From an uncultured Solirubrobacterales bacterium (lineage in GTDB: Bacteria; Actinomycetota; Thermoleophilia; Solirubrobacterales; 70-9), in contig CAVRGT010000001.1 of assembly GCA_963720805.1 (NCBI GenBank), forward strand, positions 170,187 to 234,186: a DNA stretch of 64,000 bases. The letters are read 5' to 3'. Made by a program: the position numbers and the translations under genes. Below the pieces are notes generated by a model. It did no database searches and was not told the DNA's origin. It saw nothing but the letters and a program-made list of their open reading frames with translations. Shown one piece after another: positions 1 through 44,370 of the stretch; position 1 is the first letter of the stretch; each line of letters opens with the position of its first letter.

Positions 1-737
1 TTGAGGACGCCGAGCGCACAGCGTGCCGTCGTCGATCTCGACGCCCTCGCAGACCCGCACCGGTTTGCTGGCGAAGTAGGTGAAGGGGTCGGAGTTCTGG
101 GTCAGCGCGGTGACGCCCTCGACGCTCTCGCCGTCGATCTGCACTCGCAGGCGGACGGGGTTGTGCAGGTAGGCGCGGTAGAAGGCCGGAGACCGCCGCC
201 CAGGTGAAGTAGTAGGGCCCGGCCGCCGACTTCAGCCGCGGGTGGGCATCGACCCGCTTGACCACGGTGGCGTCGATCCCGGCACCGCAGGAGAAGACGA
301 AGTGGCGGTCGGTCGGCCATGCCGAGGTCGATCTTGCGCGGCTGCCACTCGTCGGCCAGCGCCAGCAGGTGCTCGGTCGCGTCGACGACGTCGTTGGGGA
401 TGCCGAGCGTGCGGCAGACGACGTTGGTCGAGCCGCCCGGAATCACCGAGACCGGCACATCGGTCCCCGCCAGCCCGTTGACCACCTCGTTCAGCGTCCC
501 GTCCCCGCCAAAGGCGACAACCACGTCATAGCCGTGATCGCGCACCTCCCGCCCGATCTCAGTCGCATGATTCTGCGCCTCGGTCGAGACGGTTTCGACC
601 TCATAGCGTCCCTGCAGCGCATAGACGACCAGGTTCTTGAGCCGATCCGAGACCGTCGTCGCGTAGGGGTTGACGATGATCAGCATCCGCTTCTTGGCAG
701 ACTTGCGCGGCTTTCTGGAGAGGATTTTCGCTTGCAT
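1..737 (-). pseudogene. Diacylglycerol/lipid kinase family protein (DAGK catalytic domain); 3' end runs off the window; two apparent frameshifts
   Basis: The first ~135 aa of ORF 102..737 show the DAGK catalytic-domain pattern (MLIIVNPYA, VVVAFGGDGTLNEVVNGL, VIPGGSTNV). After KIDLGMAD this frame degenerates. HFVFSCGAGIDATVVKRVDAHPRLKSAAGPYYFTWAAVS and FYRAYLHNPVRLRVQIDGESVEGVTALTQNSDPF continue in the other two minus frames. The breaks coincide with a GGTC-GGTC tandem duplication (~307-314) and one extra G/C (~186-190). Confidence 0.75.
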
Positions 738-5973: not shown

Positions 5974-6135
5974 CGTTCGGGCTCATCGTCTCGTCGGGCA
6001 TGGGCGGACAAGGTTAGCCAGTGCGCGTGGAGATGCGTGGGCGATCGGTGTCACGCAATTGGGATGGCCCGGACCTCTCGCGCTAACTCCTAACGCGCGT
6101 CAGACTTTCCGGTATGGTCACTCCTTACATAAGCG

Positions 6136-6252
6136 CCACATCTAGAGGGGTGGAGGGACTGGCCCGATGAAACCCCGGCAACCGCCCCGGACCAACAGGT
6201 TCGGGGGAGGTGCCAACTCCAGCAGGTCAAGTCGAAGGCCTGGAAGATGTGG
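6136..6252 (+). promoter_or_regulatory. SAM-I (S-box) riboswitch aptamer
   Basis: P1 is CCACATCT (6136-6143) paired with AGATGTGG (6245-6252). The conserved core AGAGGGGTGGAGGGACTGGCCCGATGAAACCCCGGCAACC and ...GGTGCCAACTCCAGCAG... matches the S-box consensus as I remember it. Confidence 0.85.
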
Positions 6253-6268
6253 GGAATGTCCGATCGGA

Positions 6269-7565: not shown

Positions 7566-7837
7566 TGGCAGTCACCGTGAAGATCCCGACCCAGCTGCGC
7601 GCCGCCACCGACGGCGAGGCCGAGCTCGAGGTCGCCGGCGCCACCGTCGGCGAGGTGCTCGACGCGGTCTTCGAGGCCCACGGCACCCTGCGCGAGCGGA
7701 TCACCGAGGACGGTGACCTGCGGCGGTTCGTCAACGTCTATGTCAGCGGCGAGGACATTCGCTTCCAGCAGGGGCTGGAGACTCAGATTGACGATGGCGC
7801 CGAGGTGACCATTCTCCCGGCCGTCGCGGGTGGTTGA
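7565..7837 (+). CDS. ThiS/MoaD/CysO-type sulfur-carrier protein (C-terminal GG)
   Basis: 90 aa, ubiquitin-like length, ending ...ILPAVAGG*, and translationally coupled to the upstream ThrC-like gene. Confidence 0.8.
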   Translation: MAVTVKIPTQLRAATDGEAELEVAGATVGEVLDAVFEAHGTLRERITEDGDLRRFVNVYVSGEDIRFQQGLETQIDDGAEVTILPAVAGG

Positions 7838-7952
7838 GCGGTCATCCCGGTAGGGGTTTCGCTTAACTTTTTGGGTGGAGACGGAATTGCTGTCGCCTCG
7901 GGGGTGGACGCCCAAAAAGTGCAAGACGCTCCACCCCTACCGGGATGACCGC
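7838..7952. repeat. 115-nt nested palindrome filling the whole intergenic region and including the rfbF start codon
   Basis: The outer 20-nt arms GCGGTCATCCCGGTAGGGGT (7838-7857) and ACCCCTACCGGGATGACCGC (7933-7952) are perfect complements. The inner imperfect arms are CTTAACTTTTTGGGTG and CGCCCAAAAAGTGCAAG. Confidence 0.8.
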
Positions 7953-8733
7953 TAAGCCGCCCGTCGTCATTCTCTGCGGGGGCCGCGGGACCAGGCTGCG
8001 GGAGCGGACGGAGACTGTGCCCAAGGCGCTCGTGGAGATTGGGGCGAAGCCGATCGTCTGGCATGTGATCGGGATCTATGCGGCGCAGGGGTTCGAGCGG
8101 TTTTTGCTTGCGACCGGATATTTGGGCGAGATGGTGGAGGAGTTCGTGGCGGGGGAGAGCTGGGCGGGTGGGGTGGAGGTCGAGTGCGTCGATACGGGGC
8201 TCGATACACCTACGGGGGGGCGAATCGCCAGGCTGGGTGAGCAGCTCGATGGCGGGACGTTTTGCGCCACCTACGCGGACGGGGTCGCCGATATCGACCT
8301 GGATGCGCTGCTCGATTTCCATCGCGCCCAGGACACGCTTGGCACGGTGACCGTCGTGCAGCCGCACCTGCAATGGGGGGTGGCGGAGATTGGCGCAGAC
8401 CACAAGGTCGCGGGCTTCGTCGAGAAGCCGCGCAGCGAGCACTGGATCAACGGGGGGTTCTTCTGCTTCGAGGCGGCTGCGCTGGACTACATCGGCGAGG
8501 ACAGCGTGCTCGAGCGCGAGCCGTTGGAACGCCTTGCCGCCGACAGCCAACTCGGCGCATACCGCCACGAGGGCTTCTGGGATTGCATGGACACCTACAA
8601 GGACGCGGTCGAACTCAACGACATCTGGGCGTCGGGCCATGCCCCTTGGTCTGACCTTCCGAGCGTTCGATCGATTGACCACCGGATCCGTGGGTCAATC
8701 GATCAAACGGCGCTGCCGGCGAGGCGAAGATGA
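7945..8733 (+). CDS. rfbF: Glucose-1-phosphate cytidylyltransferase
   Basis: N-terminus VVILCGGRGTRL...PKALVEIG plus a full-length RfbF-like sequence up to WASGHAPW. The last ~27 aa are encoded by a palindrome (see findings). Confidence 0.85.
   Translation: MTAKPPVVILCGGRGTRLRERTETVPKALVEIGAKPIVWHVIGIYAAQGFERFLLATGYLGEMVEEFVAGESWAGGVEVECVDTGLDTPTGGRIARLGEQLDGGTFCATYADGVADIDLDALLDFHRAQDTLGTVTVVQPHLQWGVAEIGADHKVAGFVEKPRSEHWINGGFFCFEAAALDYIGEDSVLEREPLERLAADSQLGAYRHEGFWDCMDTYKDAVELNDIWASGHAPWSDLPSVRSIDHRIRGSIDQTALPARRR
8665..8708. repeat. 44-nt palindrome inside the 3' tail of rfbF
   Basis: GTTCGATCGATTGACC-ACCGGATCCGTG-GGTCAATCGATCAAAC. The arms are complementary except for one mismatch, and the centre CGGATCCG is itself palindromic. 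Confidence 0.8.
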
Positions 8734-13012: not shown

Positions 13013-13086
13013 CGCGCCCGACAGGATTCGAACCTGTGGCCTCTTCCTCCGGAGGGAAGCGCTCTATCCAGCTGAGCTACGGGCGC
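13013..13086 (-). tRNA. tRNA-Arg (anticodon CCG)
   Basis: The reverse complement is GCGCCCGTAGCTCAGCTGGATAGAGCGCTTCCCTCCGGAGGAAGAGGCCACAGGTTCGAATCCTGTCGGGCGCG. It folds as a cloverleaf with a 7-bp acceptor stem, anticodon stem CTTCC/GGAAG, anticodon loop CTCCGGA and T loop GGTTCGAATCC. CCA is not encoded. Confidence 0.9.
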
Positions 13087-14009: not shown

Positions 14010-14107
14010 CGTGGCCCCCTTCGGGTCGGCGGTGAGAACTGAGCACCGCCGACTTCGACCCCGCTGCCTATCTCCCCTTGGCACGCCTGGGGCCAACCTC
14101 CCAGTGC

Positions 14108-14156
14108 CGAGTGGTCGATTGACCCCCGCATACGGGGGCAAATCGACCAGTCAGCG
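14108..14156. repeat. Subterminal imperfect palindrome inside the IS, between the transposase start and the terminal repeat
   Basis: CCGAGTGGTCGATTGACCCCCGCATACGGGGGCAAATCGACCAGTCAGCG: a core hairpin CCCCCG-CATA-CGGGGG with extended imperfect arms. A second copy lies at 1091-1140. Confidence 0.7.
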
Positions 14157-19074: not shown

Positions 19075-19120
19075 CCTTCCGGTGCGCTTTATGCACCCCC
19101 CAGGTTCAAAAGGCGCACCG
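19075..19120. repeat. Hairpin repeat (CCTTTTG..TGCATAAAG family) between pyrC and carA
   Basis: CCTTCCGGTGCGCTTTATGCAC (19075-19096) is identical to the reverse complement of 34211-34232. The arms CGGTGCGC(-)TTT and AAAGGCGCACCG are complementary with one bulge. Confidence 0.75.
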
Positions 19121-19122
19121 CA

Positions 19123-20233
19123 ATGAACGAGGGATACCTGCTGCTCGCGGACGGGGCTCGGTTCGACGGGATTCCCTGTGGCGCCGAGGGGCCCGTGACC
19201 GGCGAGGTCGTCTTCAACACGGCTATGACCGGCTACCAGGAGTCGGTCACCGATCCCTCTTATGCCGGGCAGATCATCGTCTTCACCTACCCGCTGATCG
19301 GCAACTACGGCGTCTCGGCGGCGGCGATGGAGTCCGACCGCGCCCATGCCCGCGGCGTGGTCATGCGCGATCCAAAGAACGGTGAGGACGTCGCCACCGC
19401 CGAGGGCGGCTGGCTCGACTGGCTCGCCGACTGCGGCGTGCCGGCGATTGGCGGCGTCGACACCCGCGCCGTCGTCCGTCACATCCGCGACCGCGGCGCG
19501 ATGCGCGGCGGCATCTTCCCCGCCGGCACGCCCGAACCCGAAGCACGTGAGCGCGTCGCCGCCGAGCCCTCGATGGACGGCGCCGACCTCGCCCGCACTG
19601 TCACTCCCGCCGAGCCGGTCCGCTTCGAGGGGGAGGGCGGCCCGCACGTGGTCGGCATCGACACCGGGATCAAGCTCAACATCGTGCGCCAGCTGCGCGA
19701 GCGCGGCTGTCGGCTGACGCTGCTGCCCTGCACCTCCACGCCGCAGGAGGTTCTCGCCGAAGAGCCCGACGTCGTCTTCCTCGCCAACGGCCCCGGCGAC
19801 CCGGCGGCGCTCGGCTACGTAGTCGACACCGTGCGCGAGCTGGTCGGCCAGAAGCCCCTCTTCGGCATCTGCCTCGGCCACCAGCTGCTCTGCCGCGCCG
19901 TCGGCCTCGAGACCTTCAAGCTCCCCTTCGGCCACCGCGGCACCAACCACCCGGTCAAGGAGCTGGCCACGGGGCGGATCGACATCACCTCGCAGAACCA
20001 CGGCTTCGCCGTCCAGGGCCCCGGCGGCGAGCCGCGGATCGAGGCCGACGAGCCGGTGCGCTGGGAAACCGACTTCGGCGCCGCCGAGCTCTCCCACCTC
20101 AACCTCTACGACCGCACGGTCGAGGGGCTGGTGCTGAAGGAGGTCGGCGCGGCGACGGTCCAGTACCACCCCGAGGCCGGCCCCGGACCGCATGACGCCC
20201 GTCACCTATTCGATTCCTTCCTGGAGCTGACCA

Positions 20234-20241: not shown

Positions 20242-23389
<3,148 letters not shown>

Positions 23390-23393
<4 letters not shown>

Positions 23394-25243
23394 CCGCCCC
23401 CTTCGGGCGGCGGCTCTGTGCGGTTTCCGAGAGCCGTGCGACGGGCGGCTACAGGCTCTTTTCCCTGATCGACACCGAGGGTCCCGAGCCCCGGCCGGGC
23501 CAGTTCTACATGCTCGCCACCGAGAACCACTGGGAGCAGAGCGGGCAGCGCCCCTACCTCCCGCGAGCGCTCTCAGTCGCCGAGACCGGACCGGCGGCGG
23601 GCGGCGTCCGCCTCGACTTCCTGATCGAGGGCATCGGCCCCGGCACCGACCGCCTCTGCGAGCTCGAGCCCGGCGAGAACGTCTGGGTCAACGGCCCCCT
23701 GGGCAACTCGTTCTCAACCCCCCGCGAACTGCATCAACTTCTCCACCCGCTAGATGGAGAAGTTGATGCAGTTCGGCCGAGCGGGGCGGTCTTGGTGGGG
23801 GGTGGGATCGGGATCGCGCCGTTGGCGCTGCTGAGGCGCCGCTTCGCCGCGAAGAACATTCCGACCCGGGTCCTGCTGGGCTTTCGCGACGCAGCTCACT
23901 CTGGCGGCCTCGATGAGCTCTTCTCGTGTTGCGAGGTTCGTCTGGCCAGCGACGACGGCCACTCCGGTCACCACGGCTACGTCACCGACCTGCTCGCCGC
24001 GATACTCGCGGGCGACGACGCATCCAGCGCCGCCGTTTATTCCTGTGGCCCGCCGCAGATGCTCGACGTGGTCGCCGCCACCTGCACCGCGGCCGATGTC
24101 CCCTGTGAGCTCGCCATGGAGTCCCCAATGGCCTGTGGCTACGGCGCCTGCTTCGGCTGTGCAATCCCCAAGCCCGGGGGCGGCTTCATTCGGTTGTGTG
24201 TTGATGGGCCCGTGTTGCGTGGGGGGCCGGCGGGTCCTGTCGCCGCAGGGGACCCCCCACCGCCTGCGGTAGCTAAAGCTTCCTCGGCGGCGGGTCCCCC
24301 TACGGCGCCACCCCCCGGCAGCCACGGATCAGCGGGCCCGTCGACTCCGATCGAGTTTTGCGGGATTGAGTTGGCGCACCCGGTGGTCAACGCGTCCGGG
24401 ACGTTTGACGCGATAGCGGGCCGGCGCGTGTACGGCGACGCCCTGCTGACCGACTTTCCCTTCTCGGCCTTTGTCTCCAAGACGATCACGCCCGAGTCAC
24501 GCACAGGTAACGAGCCGCAGCGGATCTGGGAGACGCCGGCGGGAATGATCAACTCGATCGGGCTGCCGAACAAGGGGCTCGAGGGGTTCCTGGCCGAGGA
24601 CCTGTCACAGCTGGCGGAGCTACCAGTGCCTCTGATCGTCTCCGTCATGGCGACCGCCCACGAGGAGTTCGCGCGACTGGTCAAAGGTGTGGGGGAGAGG
24701 GACGAGGTGACGGCGATCGAGCTCAATGTCTCCTGTCCCAACGTGCACTCAGGACTGATCGTCGGCGAGCAGCCGAGCGAGACCGAGGCCCTGCTCGAAG
24801 CGTTGCGGCCGTTGACCGAGAAGCCGTTGATCGTGAAGCTGACGCCGAACGTGGCGAACCCGGTTGATGTTGCAGTTGCGGCTGAGCAGGGTGGGGCTGA
24901 CGCGGTTTCGCTGATCAACACGCTCAAGGCGAGCGCAATCGATCCAGCAACGGGCCAACCGGGCATCGCGGCCGGGCACGGTGGACTCTCCGGCCCCGCG
25001 GTGCGGCCGGTGGCCGTCGCCCAGGTGCGCGCGGTTGCCGCCGCGGTGAGCATCCCGATCGTCGGTATGGGCGGAATTTCGAGCGGGGCCGATGCGGTCG
25101 AAATGCTCTCCGCCGGGGCAACTCTCGTCGCCGTCGGGACTGAGAACTTCCGCGACCCGCGGGCGGGCAGCCGAGTAGCGGGCGAGATTGCCGGAGCGCT
25201 CCAAGCCGGTCGAAGCAGGGCTCCAATCACCCCCACCGCCTAA
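23390..25243 (+). CDS. pyrD: Dihydroorotate dehydrogenase B: PyrK-like electron-transfer subunit fused in one ORF to the PyrD catalytic subunit
   Basis: Residues 1-~280 have the FAD/NAD-binding fold plus a 2Fe-2S Cys cluster (MACGYGACFGCA...CVDGPV). From ...IEFCGIELAHPVVNASGTF onward the sequence is a class-1 DHODH (GLPNKG, NVSCPN, GLSGPA). The ~35-aa Pro/Ala linker is encoded by a repeat element. Confidence 0.88.
23725..23775. repeat. Perfect 21+9+21 nt palindrome inside the pyrK part (51 nt = 17 codons)
   Basis: CGAACTGCATCAACTTCTCCA-CCCGCTAGA-TGGAGAAGTTGATGCAGTTCG, translated in frame as (R)ELHQLLHPLDGEVDAV(R). Confidence 0.85.
24230..24311 (+). repeat. ~82-bp palindromic repeat, copy 3 (inside the ORF at the pyrK-pyrD junction)
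   Basis: GCGGGTCCTGTCGCCGCAGGGGACCCCCCACCGCCTGCGGTAGCTAAAGCTTCCTCGGCGGCGGGTCCCCCTACGGCGCCAC. It is homologous to 44221-44300 and to the reverse complement of 27871-27952. Confidence 0.85.
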
Positions 25244-26613: not shown

Positions 26614-27861
26614 ATGGCCAGAATCCTGCTCGGCGTAAGCGGAGGGATTGCCGCCTACAAGGCGCTCGAACTGGCGCGCCTGGCGACAACCGCCGGCCAC
26701 GGCGTTCGCGTGTTGATGACCGAGGGGGCGACGCGATTCGTCGGCGCCGCCTCCTTCGAGGGCATCGTCGGCGCCCCGGTCCTGCTCTCCGAGTTCGAGC
26801 GCGACCCGATGCGCGGCGCCTTTCCTGGCGACCCCGCTCCCTCGCATGACCCGATCGGCCACCTCGAGTTGGCCGCCGGCTGCGACGCCTACCTCCTCTC
26901 CCCGGCCTCGGCCAACACAGTCGCCAAGCTCGCCAGTGGCGCCGCCGATTCGATGGTGACCACCTCCTTTCTCGCCTGCACGGCGCCGCGGCTGGTTGCG
27001 CCGGCGATGAACGACCGCATGTACGCCGACGCCGCCACTCAGGCCAACCTGGCGACCCTGGCCGAGCGCGGCGTGGTCGTGATCGACCCCGAGGAGGGAG
27101 CCCTCGCCTCGCGCGGCGAGCACGGCAAGGGCCGCCTGCCCGACCCGGCGAGCCTGCTGGCTCGCGTCGAAGCGGAGCTGCCCACGGGCGAGCGCCCCTG
27201 GGACGGCCTCCGCGTCCTCGTCACCGCGGGCGGTACCCGCGAGCCAATCGACTCCGTCCGCTTCCTCGGCAACCGCTCCAGCGGCCGCATGGGCATCGCC
27301 CTCGCCGCCGCCGCCGTCCGCCGCGGCGCAGACGTCACCCTGATCGCCGCCAACGTCAACCTCGCGGAGCCCCCAGGCGTTCACCGCATAGACGTCGAGA
27401 CGACCGCAGAGCTTGCCAGGGCGACGCGTGACCAGTTCGCCACGACGCATGTTCTGCTGATGGCCGCCGCCCCTGCTGATTTTCGTGCAGCTGAGTCTTC
27501 GCCCGGCAAGATCGAGCGCACGGCCGAGGGGATCGAAGTTCCTCTGGAACCCACAGAGGACATTCTCGCCAGCCTCAAGGCGTCCCGCGCCGACGACCAA
27601 ACCATCGTCGCCTTCGCCGCCGAAGCCGGCGACAACGTCGACCGTGCCCGCGAGAAGCTCCAACTCAAGGGCGCCGACCTGATCGTCCTAAACGACATCT
27701 CGAACCCCGCAATCGGCTTCGAGAGCCAAGAAAACGCCGTAACCCTGATCGACTCAACGAGCGCCGACCCCGTCCCACAAGCTCCGAAGGACGTCGTGGC
27801 CGACGCGATCCTTGCGAGAGTCGACCAGCTTCGAGCCCGGACAGCTCAACCGAAGACGTAG
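26614..27861 (+). CDS. coaBC: Bifunctional phosphopantothenoylcysteine decarboxylase / phosphopantothenate-cysteine ligase
   Basis: N-terminal flavoprotein motif GVSGGIAAYKA, PAMN and the C-terminal CoaB domain (ITAGGTREPIDSVRFLGNRSSG). Confidence 0.93.
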   Translation: MARILLGVSGGIAAYKALELARLATTAGHGVRVLMTEGATRFVGAASFEGIVGAPVLLSEFERDPMRGAFPGDPAPSHDPIGHLELAAGCDAYLLSPASANTVAKLASGAADSMVTTSFLACTAPRLVAPAMNDRMYADAATQANLATLAERGVVVIDPEEGALASRGEHGKGRLPDPASLLARVEAELPTGERPWDGLRVLVTAGGTREPIDSVRFLGNRSSGRMGIALAAAAVRRGADVTLIAANVNLAEPPGVHRIDVETTAELARATRDQFATTHVLLMAAAPADFRAAESSPGKIERTAEGIEVPLEPTEDILASLKASRADDQTIVAFAAEAGDNVDRAREKLQLKGADLIVLNDISNPAIGFESQENAVTLIDSTSADPVPQAPKDVVADAILARVDQLRARTAQPKT

Positions 27862-27870
27862 CTCCAGCGG

Positions 27871-27952
27871 GTGGCGCCGTAGGGGGACCCGCCCCCTGAG
27901 GAAGCTTTAGCTACCGGAAGGGGGTGGGGGTTCCTGCGGCGACAGGACCCGC
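27871..27952 (-). repeat. ~82-bp palindromic repeat, copy 1 (intergenic, after coaBC; opposite orientation)
   Basis: Its reverse complement is GCGGGTCCTGTCGCCGCAGGAACCCCCACCCCCTTCCGGTAGCTAAAGCTTCCTCAGGGGGCGGGTCCCCCTACGGCGCCAC. Its terminal 19 nt (27939-27957) are duplicated exactly at 27991-28009. Confidence 0.85.
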
Positions 27953-28066
27953 TGGCCCTACGGCTCTCGAGCACATGGGGGAGGGCCATCGCGACAGGAC
28001 CCGCTGGCCAGCCACCTCCGCCGAGCTATACTGCCCCCAAGCTTTTAGTGAGTCCCGATGTACCCG

Positions 28067-28344: not shown

Positions 28345-29926
28345 GCAAGGAGATCGTCGAAGCAGTCAAGGCACTGGAGCAGGAGAAGGGGATCGCCGCC
28401 GACAAGCTGATGGACGCGCTTGCCGATGCGCTCCTCTCCGCCTACAAGAAGACGCCCGGGGCGGCCAAATACGCCCGCGTCGATCTCGATCACGAAACCG
28501 GTGACTTCCTCGTCTTCGAACTGATCCTGCCGCCCGAGCTGGAGGAGAAGCTGCTGGCCGAAGCGGCCGAAGCGCAGGAGGAGGAAGAGCGCGAAGTCGA
28601 TCCCGAGACCGGTGAGTTGCGGGAGCCCGAGGACCCCGAGCTCGATCCCGAGATGATCGCGCCCTACGAGGACCAGATCGAGACCCGCGACGTCACCCCC
28701 GAAGACTTCGGCCGGATCGCCGCTCAGACCGCCAAGCAGGTGATCCTGCAGCGGATCCGCGAGGCCGAACGGATGATGATGTTCGAGGAGTACCAGGACC
28801 GCGTCGGCGAGCTGATCACCGGGATCATCCAGCAGTCCGACAAGCGCTACACGCTGGTCCAGCTGAAGGAGCGGGTCGAGGCATTGCTGCCCAAGTCCGA
28901 GCAGGTGTACAACGAGCGCTACGACCATGGCATGCGGGTCAAGGCCGTGATCACCGACGTCTCGGACTCGACCAAAGGGCCGGCGATCGTGGTCTCGCGG
29001 CGCAGCTCGGAGCTGATCAAGAAACTCTTCGAAATCGAGGTTCCCGAGATCGCCGACAACCTGGTCGAGATCGTCGGCGTCGCCCGCGAGCCCGGCTACC
29101 GCTCGAAGATCGCCGTGATCTCCCACGCTGACGGGGTCGACCCGGTCGGCGCCTGCGTCGGCCCACGCGGCTCGCGGGTGCGGATGGTCGTCTCCGAGCT
29201 GCGCGGCGAGAAGATCGACATCATTCCCCACAACGACGAGCCCGCCCGCTTCGTCGCCAAGGCGCTCTCGCCGGCCCGCGTGCGCGAGGTGATCGTCGAC
29301 GACGACGAGCGCCAGGCGACTGTGATCGTGCCTGACGACCAGCTCTCGCTGGCGATCGGCCGCGACGGTCAGAACGCCCGTTTGGCCGCCCGGCTGACCG
29401 GCTGGCGGGTCGACATCAAGTCCGAGACCGAGTTCTCCCAGGAGGACCCGGACGTCGAGTACGAGGGCGAAGAGAACTTCGACGGTCGCTGCATGGCGGT
29501 GCTCTCCAACGGCCGGCGCTGCCCCAACGCGGCGATCGAGGGCTCGACCTACTGCGGCCTGCCGCAGCACCAGGCGCTGAGCCGCTTCGAAACCAACCAG
29601 ATCGCCGTTCTCGCCTCGATTCCCGAGGCGGAAGTCGAAATCCTCGCCGATCCGGATGCGGACCAGGGTCAGATCGATGAGATCGTCGCCAAGGCCGAGT
29701 CCGAATTTGTTGAGGAGACTCCCGATGAGGCTCCAGAGGAATCGGCTGCGGGTCCTGTCGTGACAGAGGACTCCTCGTCCTCGCAAGCTGCGGGCGAGGA
29801 GCCCACCGCCACGCCACCCGCAGAAGATTCGTCTGATGAGCCTCAGGACGAGGCGCCCGAGGAATCCGCAGAGGAACCTGTCGCTGAGCAGGCTGAACCA
29901 GTTGCCGAGGAGGCAGAGCAAGCGTA

Positions 29927-34182: not shown

Positions 34183-34233
34183 CTTCCGGTGGTCCTTTTG
34201 CTCCCTATACGTGCATAAAGCGCACCGGAAGGA
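34183..34233. repeat. Hairpin repeat (CCTTTTG..TGCATAAAG family) between truB and ribF
   Basis: CTTCCGGTGGTCCTTTTGCTCCCTATACGTGCATAAAGCGCACCGGAAGG. The outer arms CTTCCGGTG/CACCGGAAG are complementary, and the 3' 22 nt are identical to the reverse complement of 19075-19096. Confidence 0.75.
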
Positions 34234-42538: not shown

Positions 42539-44202
42539 TGGCCGCCGGCAAGCTGCGCGTGCTGCCGCTCGGGGGACTGGGCGAGATCGGCAAGAACATG
42601 ACCGTGATCGAGTACGACGGTCGCATCGTTGTCGTCGACACCGGCCTGATGTTCCCGACCGCGGAGATGCTCGGCATCGACCTCGTCCTGCCCGACTTCT
42701 CCTACCTGCGCGATCGGGTCGATGACATCGAGGCGATAGTGCTCACCCACGGCCATGAGGACCACGTCGGCGCCCTGCCCTACGTGCTGCGCGAGCTCGG
42801 CTCGCCGCCGGTGATCTACAGCGGCCTGCTGACGGTCGGCATGGTGCGGGCCAAGCTCGACGAGCACAAGCTCAAAGATGCGCCGCTGCAGGAGTTGCCG
42901 GCGGGGGAGAAAGTCCAGGTCGGCCCGTTCGAGCTGGAGTTGATCCACCTCTCGCACTCGATCCCCGACGCCCGTGGAGTGCTGCTGACGACCGAGGCCG
43001 GCAACGTGCTGATGACCGGCGACTACAAGTTCGACCAGACCCCGGTCGACGGGCGCCCCGCCGACATCTCGCGGCTGGCGGAACTCGGGCGTGACGGCCT
43101 GACGCTGCTATGCGGCGACTCGACCAATGCCGATCGCTCCGGCGTCGCCCCGTCGGAGTCGAGCGTCGGTCCGGCGCTGCTGGAGACCTTCGCCGCCTGC
43201 GAGGGCCGCATCATCGTCACCTCCTTCGCCTCCAACATCCACCGCGTCCAGCAGGTGATCGACGCCGCCGTGCAGCTCGACCGCCGCGTCGCCTTGGTCG
43301 GGCGCTCGATGCGCAAAAACTTCAACATCGCCTCCAACCTCGGCATCGCCAAAGCGCCGTCCGGGCTCTTCATCCAGCCGCGGGAGATCGAGAACTTCCC
43401 CGACGAGAAGGTGATCGTGATCTCGACCGGCAGCCAGGGCGAGCCGCTCTCGGCCCTGCGGCGAATGGCCAACAACGACCACCGCGATGTCGAGCTGCAC
43501 TCCGGCGACACCGTGGTTTTCTCGGCGACGCCGGTGCCCGGCAACGAGCGCGCCGTCAACGAGACGATCGACCGCATCTACGAGATCGGCGCCACGGTCG
43601 TCACCGCCAAGGACGCCCCGATCCACGCCTCCGGACACGGTTGGCAGGAGGAGCTCAAATTGATGCTCAACCTGACCAAACCGCGTTTCGTGCTGCCGGT
43701 CCACGGCGATTACCAGCGCCTGCGCCTGCACGCCGGGCTGGCGGAATCGGTCGGGATCGCGCCGGAGAACATCTTCCAGGGCCGCAACGGCTTGCCGCTG
43801 GAAGTCGACCAGGACGGCGCCGGCTTTGGCGAGCAGATCCACGCCGGGGTGATCTACGTCGACGGCGTCAACGTCGGCGAGCCCGACGACGTCGCCCTGC
43901 GCGACCGCCGCGAGATATCGGCCGACGGCCTCTTCATCGTCGTCGCCACGATCTCCTCCGAGGACGGCCACATCGTCGCCGACCCAGAGGTGCTCTTCCG
44001 CGGCGTCGCCTTCCTCGAGGAGGCCGACGCCCTGGTCGAGGACCTGCGCGACCTGGTCGAGGACTCGCTCGAAGATGCGGCCAAAGCGGGGACGCGGGAG
44101 CTGCACCTGGTCCAGGAAGACGTTCACGACGCCGTGGCGGGTCTGGTGTACGAAAAGCTGCGGCGGCGGCCGATGATCGTTCCGGTCGTTGTAGAGGTCT
44201 GA
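42538..44202 (+). CDS. rnj: Ribonuclease J
   Basis: MBL motif THGHEDHVGALP, a beta-CASP region and a C-terminal domain; 554 aa. Confidence 0.92.
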   Translation: MAAGKLRVLPLGGLGEIGKNMTVIEYDGRIVVVDTGLMFPTAEMLGIDLVLPDFSYLRDRVDDIEAIVLTHGHEDHVGALPYVLRELGSPPVIYSGLLTVGMVRAKLDEHKLKDAPLQELPAGEKVQVGPFELELIHLSHSIPDARGVLLTTEAGNVLMTGDYKFDQTPVDGRPADISRLAELGRDGLTLLCGDSTNADRSGVAPSESSVGPALLETFAACEGRIIVTSFASNIHRVQQVIDAAVQLDRRVALVGRSMRKNFNIASNLGIAKAPSGLFIQPREIENFPDEKVIVISTGSQGEPLSALRRMANNDHRDVELHSGDTVVFSATPVPGNERAVNETIDRIYEIGATVVTAKDAPIHASGHGWQEELKLMLNLTKPRFVLPVHGDYQRLRLHAGLAESVGIAPENIFQGRNGLPLEVDQDGAGFGEQIHAGVIYVDGVNVGEPDDVALRDRREISADGLFIVVATISSEDGHIVADPEVLFRGVAFLEEADALVEDLRDLVEDSLEDAAKAGTRELHLVQEDVHDAVAGLVYEKLRRRPMIVPVVVEV

Positions 44203-44220
44203 CGCGGGCGTCCCGGCCCC

Positions 44221-44300
44221 GCGGGTCCTGTCGCCGCAGGAACCCCCACCCCTTCCGGTCGCTAAAGCGTCCTCAGGGGCGGGTCCCCCTACGGCGCCAC
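44221..44300 (+). repeat. ~82-bp palindromic repeat, copy 2 (intergenic, after rnj)
   Basis: GCGGGTCCTGTCGCCGCAGGAACCCCCACCCCTTCCGGTCGCTAAAGCGTCCTCAGGGGCGGGTCCCCCTACGGCGCCAC. Confidence 0.85.
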
Positions 44301-44370
44301 CCCCGGGGAGGGGCGCCCCCGGCAGAGCTTGCTGCGAGGGACCAACGCCTCCGCGTCAGAGTTTGCGGGC

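Follow-up and report, generated by a model that had tools for sequence, protein, structure and literature searches.

The window analyzed here, a stretch of 64,000 nucleotides (nt) from an uncultured Solirubrobacterales bacterium (assembly GCA_963720805.1, contig CAVRGT010000001.1), contains an open reading frame (ORF) at 23390..25243 that encodes both subunits of a class 1B dihydroorotate dehydrogenase. This 617 amino acid ORF includes the electron-transfer subunit PyrK and the catalytic subunit PyrD, and it runs open through a copy of a GC-rich hairpin repeat, which we refer to as E1 (24224-24321). An earlier note on this DNA had claimed that the ORF reads through a repeat between the two subunits, and Pfam domains on both sides of the repeat bear this out: NAD_binding_1 (PF00175) at residues 135-228, DHODB_Fe-S_bind (PF10418) at 244-278, and DHO_dh (PF01180) at 322-601. 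All domains of the class 1B subunits are present, namely the FAD/NAD-binding and 2Fe-2S domains of PyrK and the DHO_dh fold of PyrD. The two separate, adjacent cistrons of this class are replaced by a single ORF in the window and in its 120 closest homologues. The operon context in syntenic loci is pyrR-pyrB-pyrC-carA-carB-pyrKD.

The PyrK part (23390..24223, + strand) ends with ...CVDGPVLRG. The separate PyrK proteins of relatives stop at or just past this point, with RGG* or RG[DE][QR][IV]AEV[AT]HA* (the asterisk marks a stop codon). The E1 copy follows and encodes the peptide GPAGPVAAGDPPPPAVAKASSAAGPPTAPPPGS; next come the linker tail HGSAGPSTPI (24322..24352, + strand) and the PyrD part (24353..25243, + strand), which begins with EFCGIELAHPVVNASG and lacks a start codon of its own. 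The separate PyrD of relatives begins with M-P-[DE]-[FL]-C-G. We found no in-frame ATG or GTG between E1 and the conserved PyrD N-terminus, so PyrD would be made only via read-through from PyrK. The repeat lies exactly at the end of pyrK and the start of pyrD, as had been proposed, and the position matches the junction in the element-free relatives L127, L129, and L135-L139. The predicted peptide of the linker region includes ...LRGGPAGPVAAGD... and ...PPPGSHGSAGPSTPIEFCG.... We predict a flexible or disordered linker of 45-60 residues. In an AlphaFold model, which we used only for linker disorder, the linker has a predicted local distance difference test score (pLDDT) of 23-27 and no secondary structure.

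Copies of E1 in the window

The window contains three near-full copies of the repeat, with a mean column identity of 85% in their alignment and 88-95% identity over 84-92 nt by blastn. The earlier note had located these three copies correctly, but its size of ~82 bp is slightly too small; the real unit is about 98 nt with a 90-nt core. The copy between pyrK and pyrD is made up of GGGC, the core (24228-24317), and GCAG, and has the C-rich strand as its sense strand. The two other copies are intergenic, one after coaBC and one after rnj. The first of these (27861..27958, - strand; core 27865-27954, 90 nt) is directly 3′ of the coaBC stop codon (TAG, 27859-27861) and has its G-rich strand on the + strand, where the predicted fold is -69.5 kcal/mol (z = -5.6). 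Compensating internal indels move the centre of its core by 1 nt and keep the 90-nt length, and the usual frame hits a stop at the central loop on either strand (TAG on the C-rich strand). Read from the left end, it ends in ...PFR*. The second intergenic copy (about 44215..44310, + strand; core 44219-44306) is located between convergent genes, 3′ of the rnj stop codon (TGA, 44200-44202). It was said to differ in length from the coding copy and to meet the TAA of the loop, and this is what we find: the core has 88 nt instead of 90, the coding frame hits the loop TAA, and reading from the left end gives AGPVAAGTPTPSGR*.

The acidic C-terminal tail of nusA contains a further, degenerate copy of 78 nt (29746..29823, + strand), which is in frame and encodes AAGPVVTEDSSSSQAAGEEPTATPPAE. 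This copy keeps the termini CTGCGGGTCCTGTCG...ACGCCACCCGCAG, including the complementary T/A position, but has a divergent interior and no loop. Based on their open frames, we predict two translated E1 copies in the window, at the pyrK/pyrD junction and in the nusA tail. A partial duplicate of the E1 left end (about 27985..28006, - strand; 20 nt, with a 19-nt exact blastn match) reads CGCGACAGGACCCGCTGGCC on the + strand. RNA folding of the window copies gives z from -4.2 to -5.6 for the G-rich strand versus -1.8 to -3.6 for the C-rich strand. A scan of the window against Rfam at gathering thresholds found nothing at the E1 position.

A dispersed family of hairpin repeats

E1 belongs to the GC-rich hairpin repeats that are scattered across the genomes of soil Solirubrobacterales. 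A complete unit has about 75% G+C and consists of the 90-nt (30-codon) core with about four conserved bases on each side. A scan of a genome collection with an exact 18-mer from the left arm found at least 120 loci, nearly all in Solirubrobacterales or Thermoleophilia metagenome-assembled genomes (MAGs). Complete chromosomes of 2.4-3.1 Mb are included among the matched genomes, and there are several loci per genome, the copy numbers being lower bounds. An nhmmer profile built from the three window copies gave 132 matches in the window and loci L001-L126 (about 1 Mb). Both searches place copies elsewhere in the genomes of relatives and rule out local duplication, which the earlier note had considered as another source of the three copies. 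Among the papers searched, none links Solirubrobacterales with palindromic repeats.

The hairpin is conserved through compensatory change. An alignment of 84 distinct copies is nearly gap-free, and RNAalifold predicts from it a single hairpin of 30 pairs, 13 of which have compensatory changes. Paired cells make up 97.2% of the alignment, versus 88.9 ± 0.3% in shuffles, and the covariation score of 0.211 (0.073 in shuffles) was reached by none of 500 shuffles. As a control, the partner column was slid by 1-3 positions, and the score was then at most 0.036. At the second terminal pair, CG and GC occur in 34 copies each, AU in 9, and UA in 3. A pair of the loop stem is intact in every copy (AU in 48, CG in 36); the exchange of AGC/GCT for CGC/GCG that had been noticed among the window copies is real and general. 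The next stem is CCGCC/GGCGG in the coding copy and CCCC/GGGG in the intergenic copies, again as described before.

The ends of E1 have the form (GGC)C-N-GCGGGTCC ... CCACCCGC-N′-G(GGAG), and the terminal 8-11 bp pair in all copies, as do the terminal inverted repeats of MITEs (short for miniature inverted-repeat transposable elements). The terminal GTAG/CGTC head of repetitive extragenic palindromic (REP) sequences is absent from the E1 ends; GTAG occurs only within one arm (GCCGTAGGGGG), with TCGCAG in a sub-family. One observation concerns the taxonomic range. Three contigs of JBLMYD01 (L024, L045, L051), a MAG labelled as Chloroflexota MAG238, have canonical E1 copies in NuoC and Lhr that are close to the Solirubrobacterales versions, and this bin may be mislabelled or contaminated.

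Copies within genes

On each strand, we saw only one frame of E1 in use. Two of the three frames of the C-rich strand meet a stop, TAG or TAA, in the loop sequence GGTAGCTAAAGC. TAG closes one frame on the G-rich strand, where a second frame is open yet was not seen in credible genes. The used-frame peptides are PAGPVAAGDPPPPAVAKASSG.VPPTAPPAG (C-rich strand) and PAGGAVGGTAPEEALATAGGGGSPAATGPAG (G-rich strand); both are rich in proline, alanine, and glycine and are predicted to be unstructured.

We delimited 98 copies. A copy was counted as within an ORF if the frame of the element had no stop for 70 or more codons on each side (or as far as the locus extends) and for 200 or more in total. Long ORFs contain 57 of the 98 copies, 21 are clearly outside ORFs, and 20 are ambiguous. 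The length is a multiple of 3 in 55 of the 57 copies in ORFs (exactly 90 nt in 47) and in 10 of the 21 outside, where lengths are often 1-2 nt off 90. The two intergenic copies of the window, each shifted onto a loop stop, illustrate this decay by indels. In a stricter coding screen, the only frame that passes is C-rich-sense for 22 copies and G-rich-sense for 13. Our first coding filter, based on G+C at third codon positions (GC3), was too strict and missed the pyrK/pyrD copies of L001 and L002; it was replaced by the ORF-extension criteria and Pfam checks.

Pfam confirms many of the host genes, with domains on both sides of E1 or a domain split by it. The Complex1_30kDa domain of NuoC is split by E1 at profile position 64/65, an Lhr helicase gene contains two copies, and E2 acyltransferases have E1 in one or both of the inter-domain linkers. 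Ribosomal protein S1 has E1 in its tail and a DnaE-type polymerase has it in the PHP domain. E1 is also in frame in DnaX, RecG, BCCP, Maf, and FtsZ, as well as in a Wzy_C ligase and a DacC-like Peptidase_S11. Both orientations were found at one site in NuoC, Wzy_C, Peptidase_S11, E2 site 2, and a membrane glycosyltransferase-like protein.

The pyrK/pyrD junction in relatives

We found no stop or frameshift that separates pyrK from pyrD where the two are joined. Fusion with an open frame is seen in all 120 of the closest homologues (76-91% identity), with E1 in either orientation. Their linkers include 53 of type A, as in the window, 41 of type B, 14 of types A2 and B2, and 8 of types C and D, and the few that remain have central deletions. 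In type B, the same element is reverse-complemented; the copy in L001 is 91.8% identical to the window copy over 97 nt. Types A2 and B2 have the ends of A and B with a different interior that is still paired, and types C and D contain a different, longer palindrome in two orientations.

Split genes occur in close relatives. In L127 and L129, pyrK and pyrD are separate with a stop/start overlap of 8 nt (ATGCCTGA or GTGGNTGA in split relatives), and pyrD is in the +1 frame. The 90%-identity cluster of P0041 also contains PyrD proteins of 298 amino acids that start with MPDFCG and a 274 amino acid PyrK that ends with ...VRPDQVELAHA. A metagenome scan gave 70 readable pyrK/pyrD junctions, 31 split and 39 fused, and none of the 39 has a stop. 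The frame of pyrD is +1 in 30 of the 31 split junctions and +2 in one (L206, 44 nt). The split classes, which have the ATG..TGA overlap and are named by junction length, are S43 (RGG*), S64 (RPDQVELAHA*), and S67 (RG[DE][QR][IV]AEV[AT]HA*).

The fused metagenome junctions contain at least 10 different linker families: E1-A, E1-B, A2, B2, C, D, and at least 5 further sequence families. Of the 39 linkers, 35 fold as a single long hairpin (the exceptions are L194, L195, L197, and L198), and several of these hairpins are nearly perfect, with z down to -8.7. In the pyrK tree, split forms are interspersed among fused forms; our neighbour-joining trees have short internal branches without bootstrap support and are used only qualitatively. 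Distant lineages (31-48% identity) also have PyrK-PyrD fusions, with unrelated, non-repeat linkers, so the fusion as such is not unique. Separate pyrK and pyrD, the normal state according to the earlier note, are found in close relatives, but fusion is not confined to the window's genome; it is widespread in Solirubrobacterales, with E1 in both orientations, and has unrelated counterparts in distant lineages. The linker, for which the earlier note had proposed a check of lineage-specificity, is an in-frame copy of a dispersed repeat; several other hairpin families fill the junction in other lineages.

The fused junctions can be matched to split ones. Type B corresponds to S64 with a net gain of 98 nt between CGGCC and (G)ATCAG; the type B flank matches S64 through ...GTG CGG CC and, in L169, resumes with AATCAG versus (C)GATCAG in S64. 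For type A, the counterpart is an S67-like split form and the net gain is 101 nt; here the flank matches S67-like genes through ...CGN GGN G and resumes with ACGGATC versus GACCGGATC in S67. In the window, the motif ACGGATCAG of the linker tail has its match in the pyrK tails of split genes (GACCGGATC / CCCGATCAG), and the last 10 nt of the tail are similar to the right flank of type B junctions. The tail HGSAGPSTPI is a candidate remnant of the ancestral pyrK 3′ tail, and we infer that it may be that old tail now read in the pyrD frame. We had considered whether the tail of type A copies the end of pyrK in inverted form; the z of up to 5.3 is only moderate and the signal is absent in the closest A/B pair, and an old pyrK tail in a new frame explains it better because of the match to split tails. 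Insertion that copies its flank in inverted orientation was also rejected as a general rule (mean z 0.84 over 122 copies, only 11% above 3).

Hairpins of the different types meet at a few sites. In dnaX of L040 (60-330) there is a centrally deleted E1 copy, and adjoining E1 arms enclose a C/D-type core. In L089 (1290-1400), an in-frame C/D-type hairpin occupies the membrane-protein site that has E1 in L081, L084, and L126. Some E1 copies probably sit within older hairpins, and the nesting and substitution suggest that the hairpins themselves, or certain sites, are preferred targets. The D-type junction hairpin of L006 (8150-8200) contains GAGCGGAATCGAACC, the reverse complement of GGTTCGATTCCGCTC, which resembles a tRNA T-arm; the C-type copy in L005 is without this T-arm-like sequence, and the resemblance may be chance.

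Origin of the fusion and alternative explanations

We consider it probable that a dispersed family of E1 repeats, tolerated in frame, fused pyrK and pyrD by insertion, and this is the best explanation of the data as a whole. The interpretation of the linker as an in-frame copy of a dispersed palindromic repeat is supported by the results above. The ancestral pyr operon would have had two translationally coupled cistrons, with the pyrK stop overlapping the pyrD start (ATGCCTGA or GTGGNTGA). Since the pyrD start is inside the pyrK stop, pyrD in split genes depends on translational coupling. If 98 or 101 nt were inserted within the final pyrK codons, this would move the old pyrK stop codon (TGA) out of frame, cancel the +1 offset so that pyrD joins the pyrK frame, and turn E1 and the old pyrK tail, in its new frame, into a flexible linker of 45-60 residues. 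Both lengths are 2 mod 3, so one insertion suffices for the fusion. Other insertions at the junction would cut pyrD off from its only route of translation and then be lost, and the silencing of pyrD by non-fusing insertions may be why every occupied junction is fused. Elsewhere, copies that land in a usable frame, in a loop or linker, and with a whole-codon length would be tolerated and then kept open by selection, and copies outside genes would decay through small indels. The dispersed, polymorphic distribution of E1 suggests that it is mobile or was so recently.

Several observations count against this explanation. The fused 617 amino acid protein is predicted from the open frame alone, and the AlphaFold model is weak as a whole (mean pLDDT 59). 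There is an apparent 1-nt frameshift in carB near position 22,988 (22,980-22,995): in a tblastn search with the 1038 amino acid CarB of L002, residues 1-918 match to about 22,987, and residues 919-1028 match in another frame from about 22,989. This break is either a sequencing indel, in a contig that resembles a long-read MAG, or the mark of an essential gene turned pseudogene, and since it is in the same assembly, the argument from reading frames rests on the relatives and not on the window alone. We found no direct repeats flanking more than 100 copies and no target-site duplication in the comparison of filled and empty pyrK/pyrD sites. No common target motif or conserved target tetranucleotide was found beside the copies. 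No transposase was identified in the 8-kb pieces around copies, and no genome-wide search was made. The split and fused genes that we compared are 85-90% identical and are not sisters, so that both the exact boundaries of the insertion and the notion of a single event are reconstructed. Sub-family variants are common to the two orientations at the junction, which could point to inversion in place.

Inversion would require only one ancestral insertion, with the two orientations arising in place by recombination or template switching within the palindrome and the linker toggling between two peptides. We regard this as unlikely. On the domain tree, linkers of types A and B are mixed, as in P0024 (A) and P0103 (B), which are 95.1% identical outside the linker; there is weak clustering, with the nearest neighbour having the same linker type in 61 of 116 cases versus 39 ± 6 at random. 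Variants rare in the pool, TGCGA for TACGG and the CCCCCCGGCAG end, are shared by A and B junctions, the close A/B pair L131 and L132 both have the loop variant GCTGAAGC, and the copies of a second such pair, L133 and L134, are about 94% identical over the 90-nt core (5 differences) with one reverse-complemented. At least 4 other host sites (NuoC, Wzy_C, Peptidase_S11, and E2 site 2) have both orientations. The shared variants also occur at other loci, however, and may mark a sub-family. The flanks of A and B differ systematically: A has LRGG and a tail with ACGGATCAG, like S67, and B has VRP followed by the element, like S64. Since S64 and S67 match the flanks of B and A, we downgraded inversion as the main cause of the two orientations. 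The closest A/B pair has no sign of inverted flanks (z = -0.7), and split forms among fused forms fit repeated gain or loss. Independent insertions in the two orientations are therefore favoured.

The repeat may instead be chiefly a functional nucleic-acid signal and not selfish DNA, with a role in mRNA stability like that of REPs, in pausing of transcription or replication, or in protein binding. Its coding copies would then be found where the signal is of use, such as between domains. Compensatory changes maintain the structure at different loci and in different genomes, both clearly intergenic window copies begin right 3′ of stop codons, and the G-rich strand forms a very stable RNA fold (z -4.2 to -5.6). 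By our reading of the alignment, the covarying positions in coding copies are also synonymous or conservative codon positions. Such a signal seems improbable to us, since both orientations relative to transcription are used (22 C-rich-sense only and 13 G-rich-sense only) and the two strands are very unequal in RNA stability, which argues against an RNA signal. No Rfam family matches, the host genes are functionally unrelated, copies outside genes decay by indels, and close relatives lack the element at the same site. A further alternative is that the repeat spread through its peptide, as a selected Pro/Ala/Gly linker cassette copied by recombination, with the palindrome incidental. This would fit the exact 30-codon core, the similar low-complexity peptides from both strands, and the location of copies at domain boundaries and loops (E2 linkers, BCCP, the DnaX stretch that separates domain III from the C-terminal domain, and loops that join membrane helices). 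Non-coding copies exist, though, pairing is maintained at the DNA level via changes on both arms, and at least 10 unrelated hairpins with quite different peptides occupy one junction, where the hairpin is shared and the peptide is not; we give this alternative little credence. An artefact of assembly or sequencing, or a pseudogene, with pyrK and pyrD truly separate, is extremely improbable. GC-rich hairpins are hard to sequence and the carB frameshift is in the same contig, but the 120 homologues come from independent JGI, ENA, NCBI, and Logan assemblies and are open across very different linkers, all 39 fused metagenome junctions are in frame, and pyrD in the window has no start codon of its own. 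An identical 617 amino acid protein on record (P0290) is probably from the window's own contig and is not independent support.

Comparison with known repeat systems

The E1 family appears closest to the Rickettsia palindromic elements (RPEs), as a GC-rich analogue and not a member. RPEs (Ogata et al. 2000, 2002) are described in PMC2229807 and PMC10969869 as dispersed hairpin repeats of about 100-150 bp, many of them in frame in conserved genes. As far as these accounts go, E1 shares with them long-hairpin dispersed repeats, a large in-frame share in housekeeping genes, a tolerated extra peptide, and no known transposase. E1 is a dispersed hairpin repeat (at least 120 loci, with covariation in 84 copies) and is frequently in frame in conserved genes (57 of 98 copies, with hosts assigned by Pfam). 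The earlier comparison with RPEs is apt, as over half of the delimited copies are in frame in housekeeping genes. Unlike RPEs, which are from AT-rich Rickettsia, E1 has about 75% G+C and occurs in free-living soil Actinomycetota. It also differs in its strict 30-codon core, in its two orientations at orthologous sites, in joining two cistrons into one polypeptide where RPEs add a loop, and in the several co-existing families that compete for one junction. Judged by composition and host, sequence homology of E1 to RPE-1..10 is very unlikely.

In-frame palindromes are not confined to Rickettsia, the only case that the earlier note had named. In-frame copies are on record for ERIC, the 107-bp Correia element, and YPAL (Delihas 2008, PMC2229807), and intragenic REPs occur in replication and repair genes, with different REPs at about the same recB site across species (PMC3733652). 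REPs and REPINs (Di Nocera et al. 2013, PMC3733652) resemble E1 in being GC-rich imperfect palindromes, often just 3′ of genes and some of them intragenic, and E1, like a REPIN, is a hairpin of about 100 nt formed from two inverted arms. E1 differs in lacking the terminal GTAG/CGTC head, with GTAG internal to one arm in most copies, and in a share within coding sequences far above what is usual for REPs. With the MITEs ERIC, Correia, and YPAL, E1 shares small size, a non-autonomous nature, terminal inverted repeats, and stable stem-loops. The differences are its much higher G+C, the lack of target-site duplications and TA termini, and that no related insertion sequence was identified in the 8-kb pieces around copies. 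Since E1 has neither the REP head motif nor the MITE target-site duplication, we place it in neither class.

Transposition of the IS200/IS605 type is single-stranded and hairpin-dependent, and gives seamless presence or absence without target-site duplication. E1 is similar in its apparently seamless presence and absence, in its dependence on a hairpin, and in the nesting in centres (the C/D-type core within E1 arms in L040). It is different in that no TnpA gene turned up, although no genome-wide search was made, and no conserved target tetranucleotide is found beside the copies. Mycobacterial interspersed repetitive units (MIRUs), as reported by Supply and colleagues in 1997, are short repeats exactly at intercistronic operon junctions of a high-GC actinobacterium, and the stop and start codons beside them limit their reading frames. 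In these tandem direct repeats, the genes stay separate via small overlapping ORFs that preserve coupling, whereas E1 is a hairpin in a single fused protein.

Other features of the window

The only two Rfam matches in the window are a SAM (S-box) riboswitch at 6135-6253 (+ strand; 90.3 bits) and a tRNA gene at 13013-13086 (- strand). The window contains a second, unrelated repeat family with the palindromic core GTTTGCCCCCGTATGCGGGGGTCAAT-CGACC, at 1091-1141, 14106-14156 (inverted), and 8671-8715; two of these copies are 88% complementary over 51 nt. A relative of this family at L009:1260-1300, in another Thermoleophilia genome, adjoins C/D-type hairpin arms. A 49-nt inverted pair (CCTTCCGGTGCGCTTTATGCAC..., 78% complementary) at 19075-19123 and 34184-34232, 15 kb apart, is possibly a third small repeat family. 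There is also a local inverted repeat of 31 nt (90% complementary, 75-nt spacing) at 7827-7857 and 7933-7963.

Significance

The phenomenon is much larger than the window alone reveals. In-frame "protein-coding palindromes" have mostly been regarded as an oddity that belongs to Rickettsia, and E1 shows the same lifestyle in soil Actinomycetota. The host order is abundant yet poorly studied, and over half of the sampled E1 copies are inside essential genes. E1 differs from its known analogues in being GC-rich, in its host phylum, in its bidirectional 30-codon core, in its coding share, and in repeated cistron bridging. For annotation, E1 inserts in NuoC, FtsZ, DnaX, and other proteins are neither errors nor a reason for splitting genes.

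The pyrK/pyrD junction offers a concrete, one-step route by which two coupled genes may become one fused enzyme, through a 2 mod 3 insertion at an overlapping stop and start. Natural "before" and "after" alleles are present in close relatives, and the fusion seems to have been repeated with different elements. Gene fusion through selfish DNA becomes directly testable, and the junction is usable as a metagenome marker of element activity. We propose tentatively, as a possibility that we doubt more than we believe, that E1 and at least 9 further families form a guild of hairpin elements adapted to coding DNA, with whole-codon lengths and with both strands translatable. These would move in and out without scars as mobile "linker cassettes", repeatedly switching pyrK and pyrD between split and fused and inserting or exchanging flexible loops in dozens of essential proteins. 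If this is true, the guild would provide a mechanism, still at work and open to observation, by which bacterial domains are fused and split.

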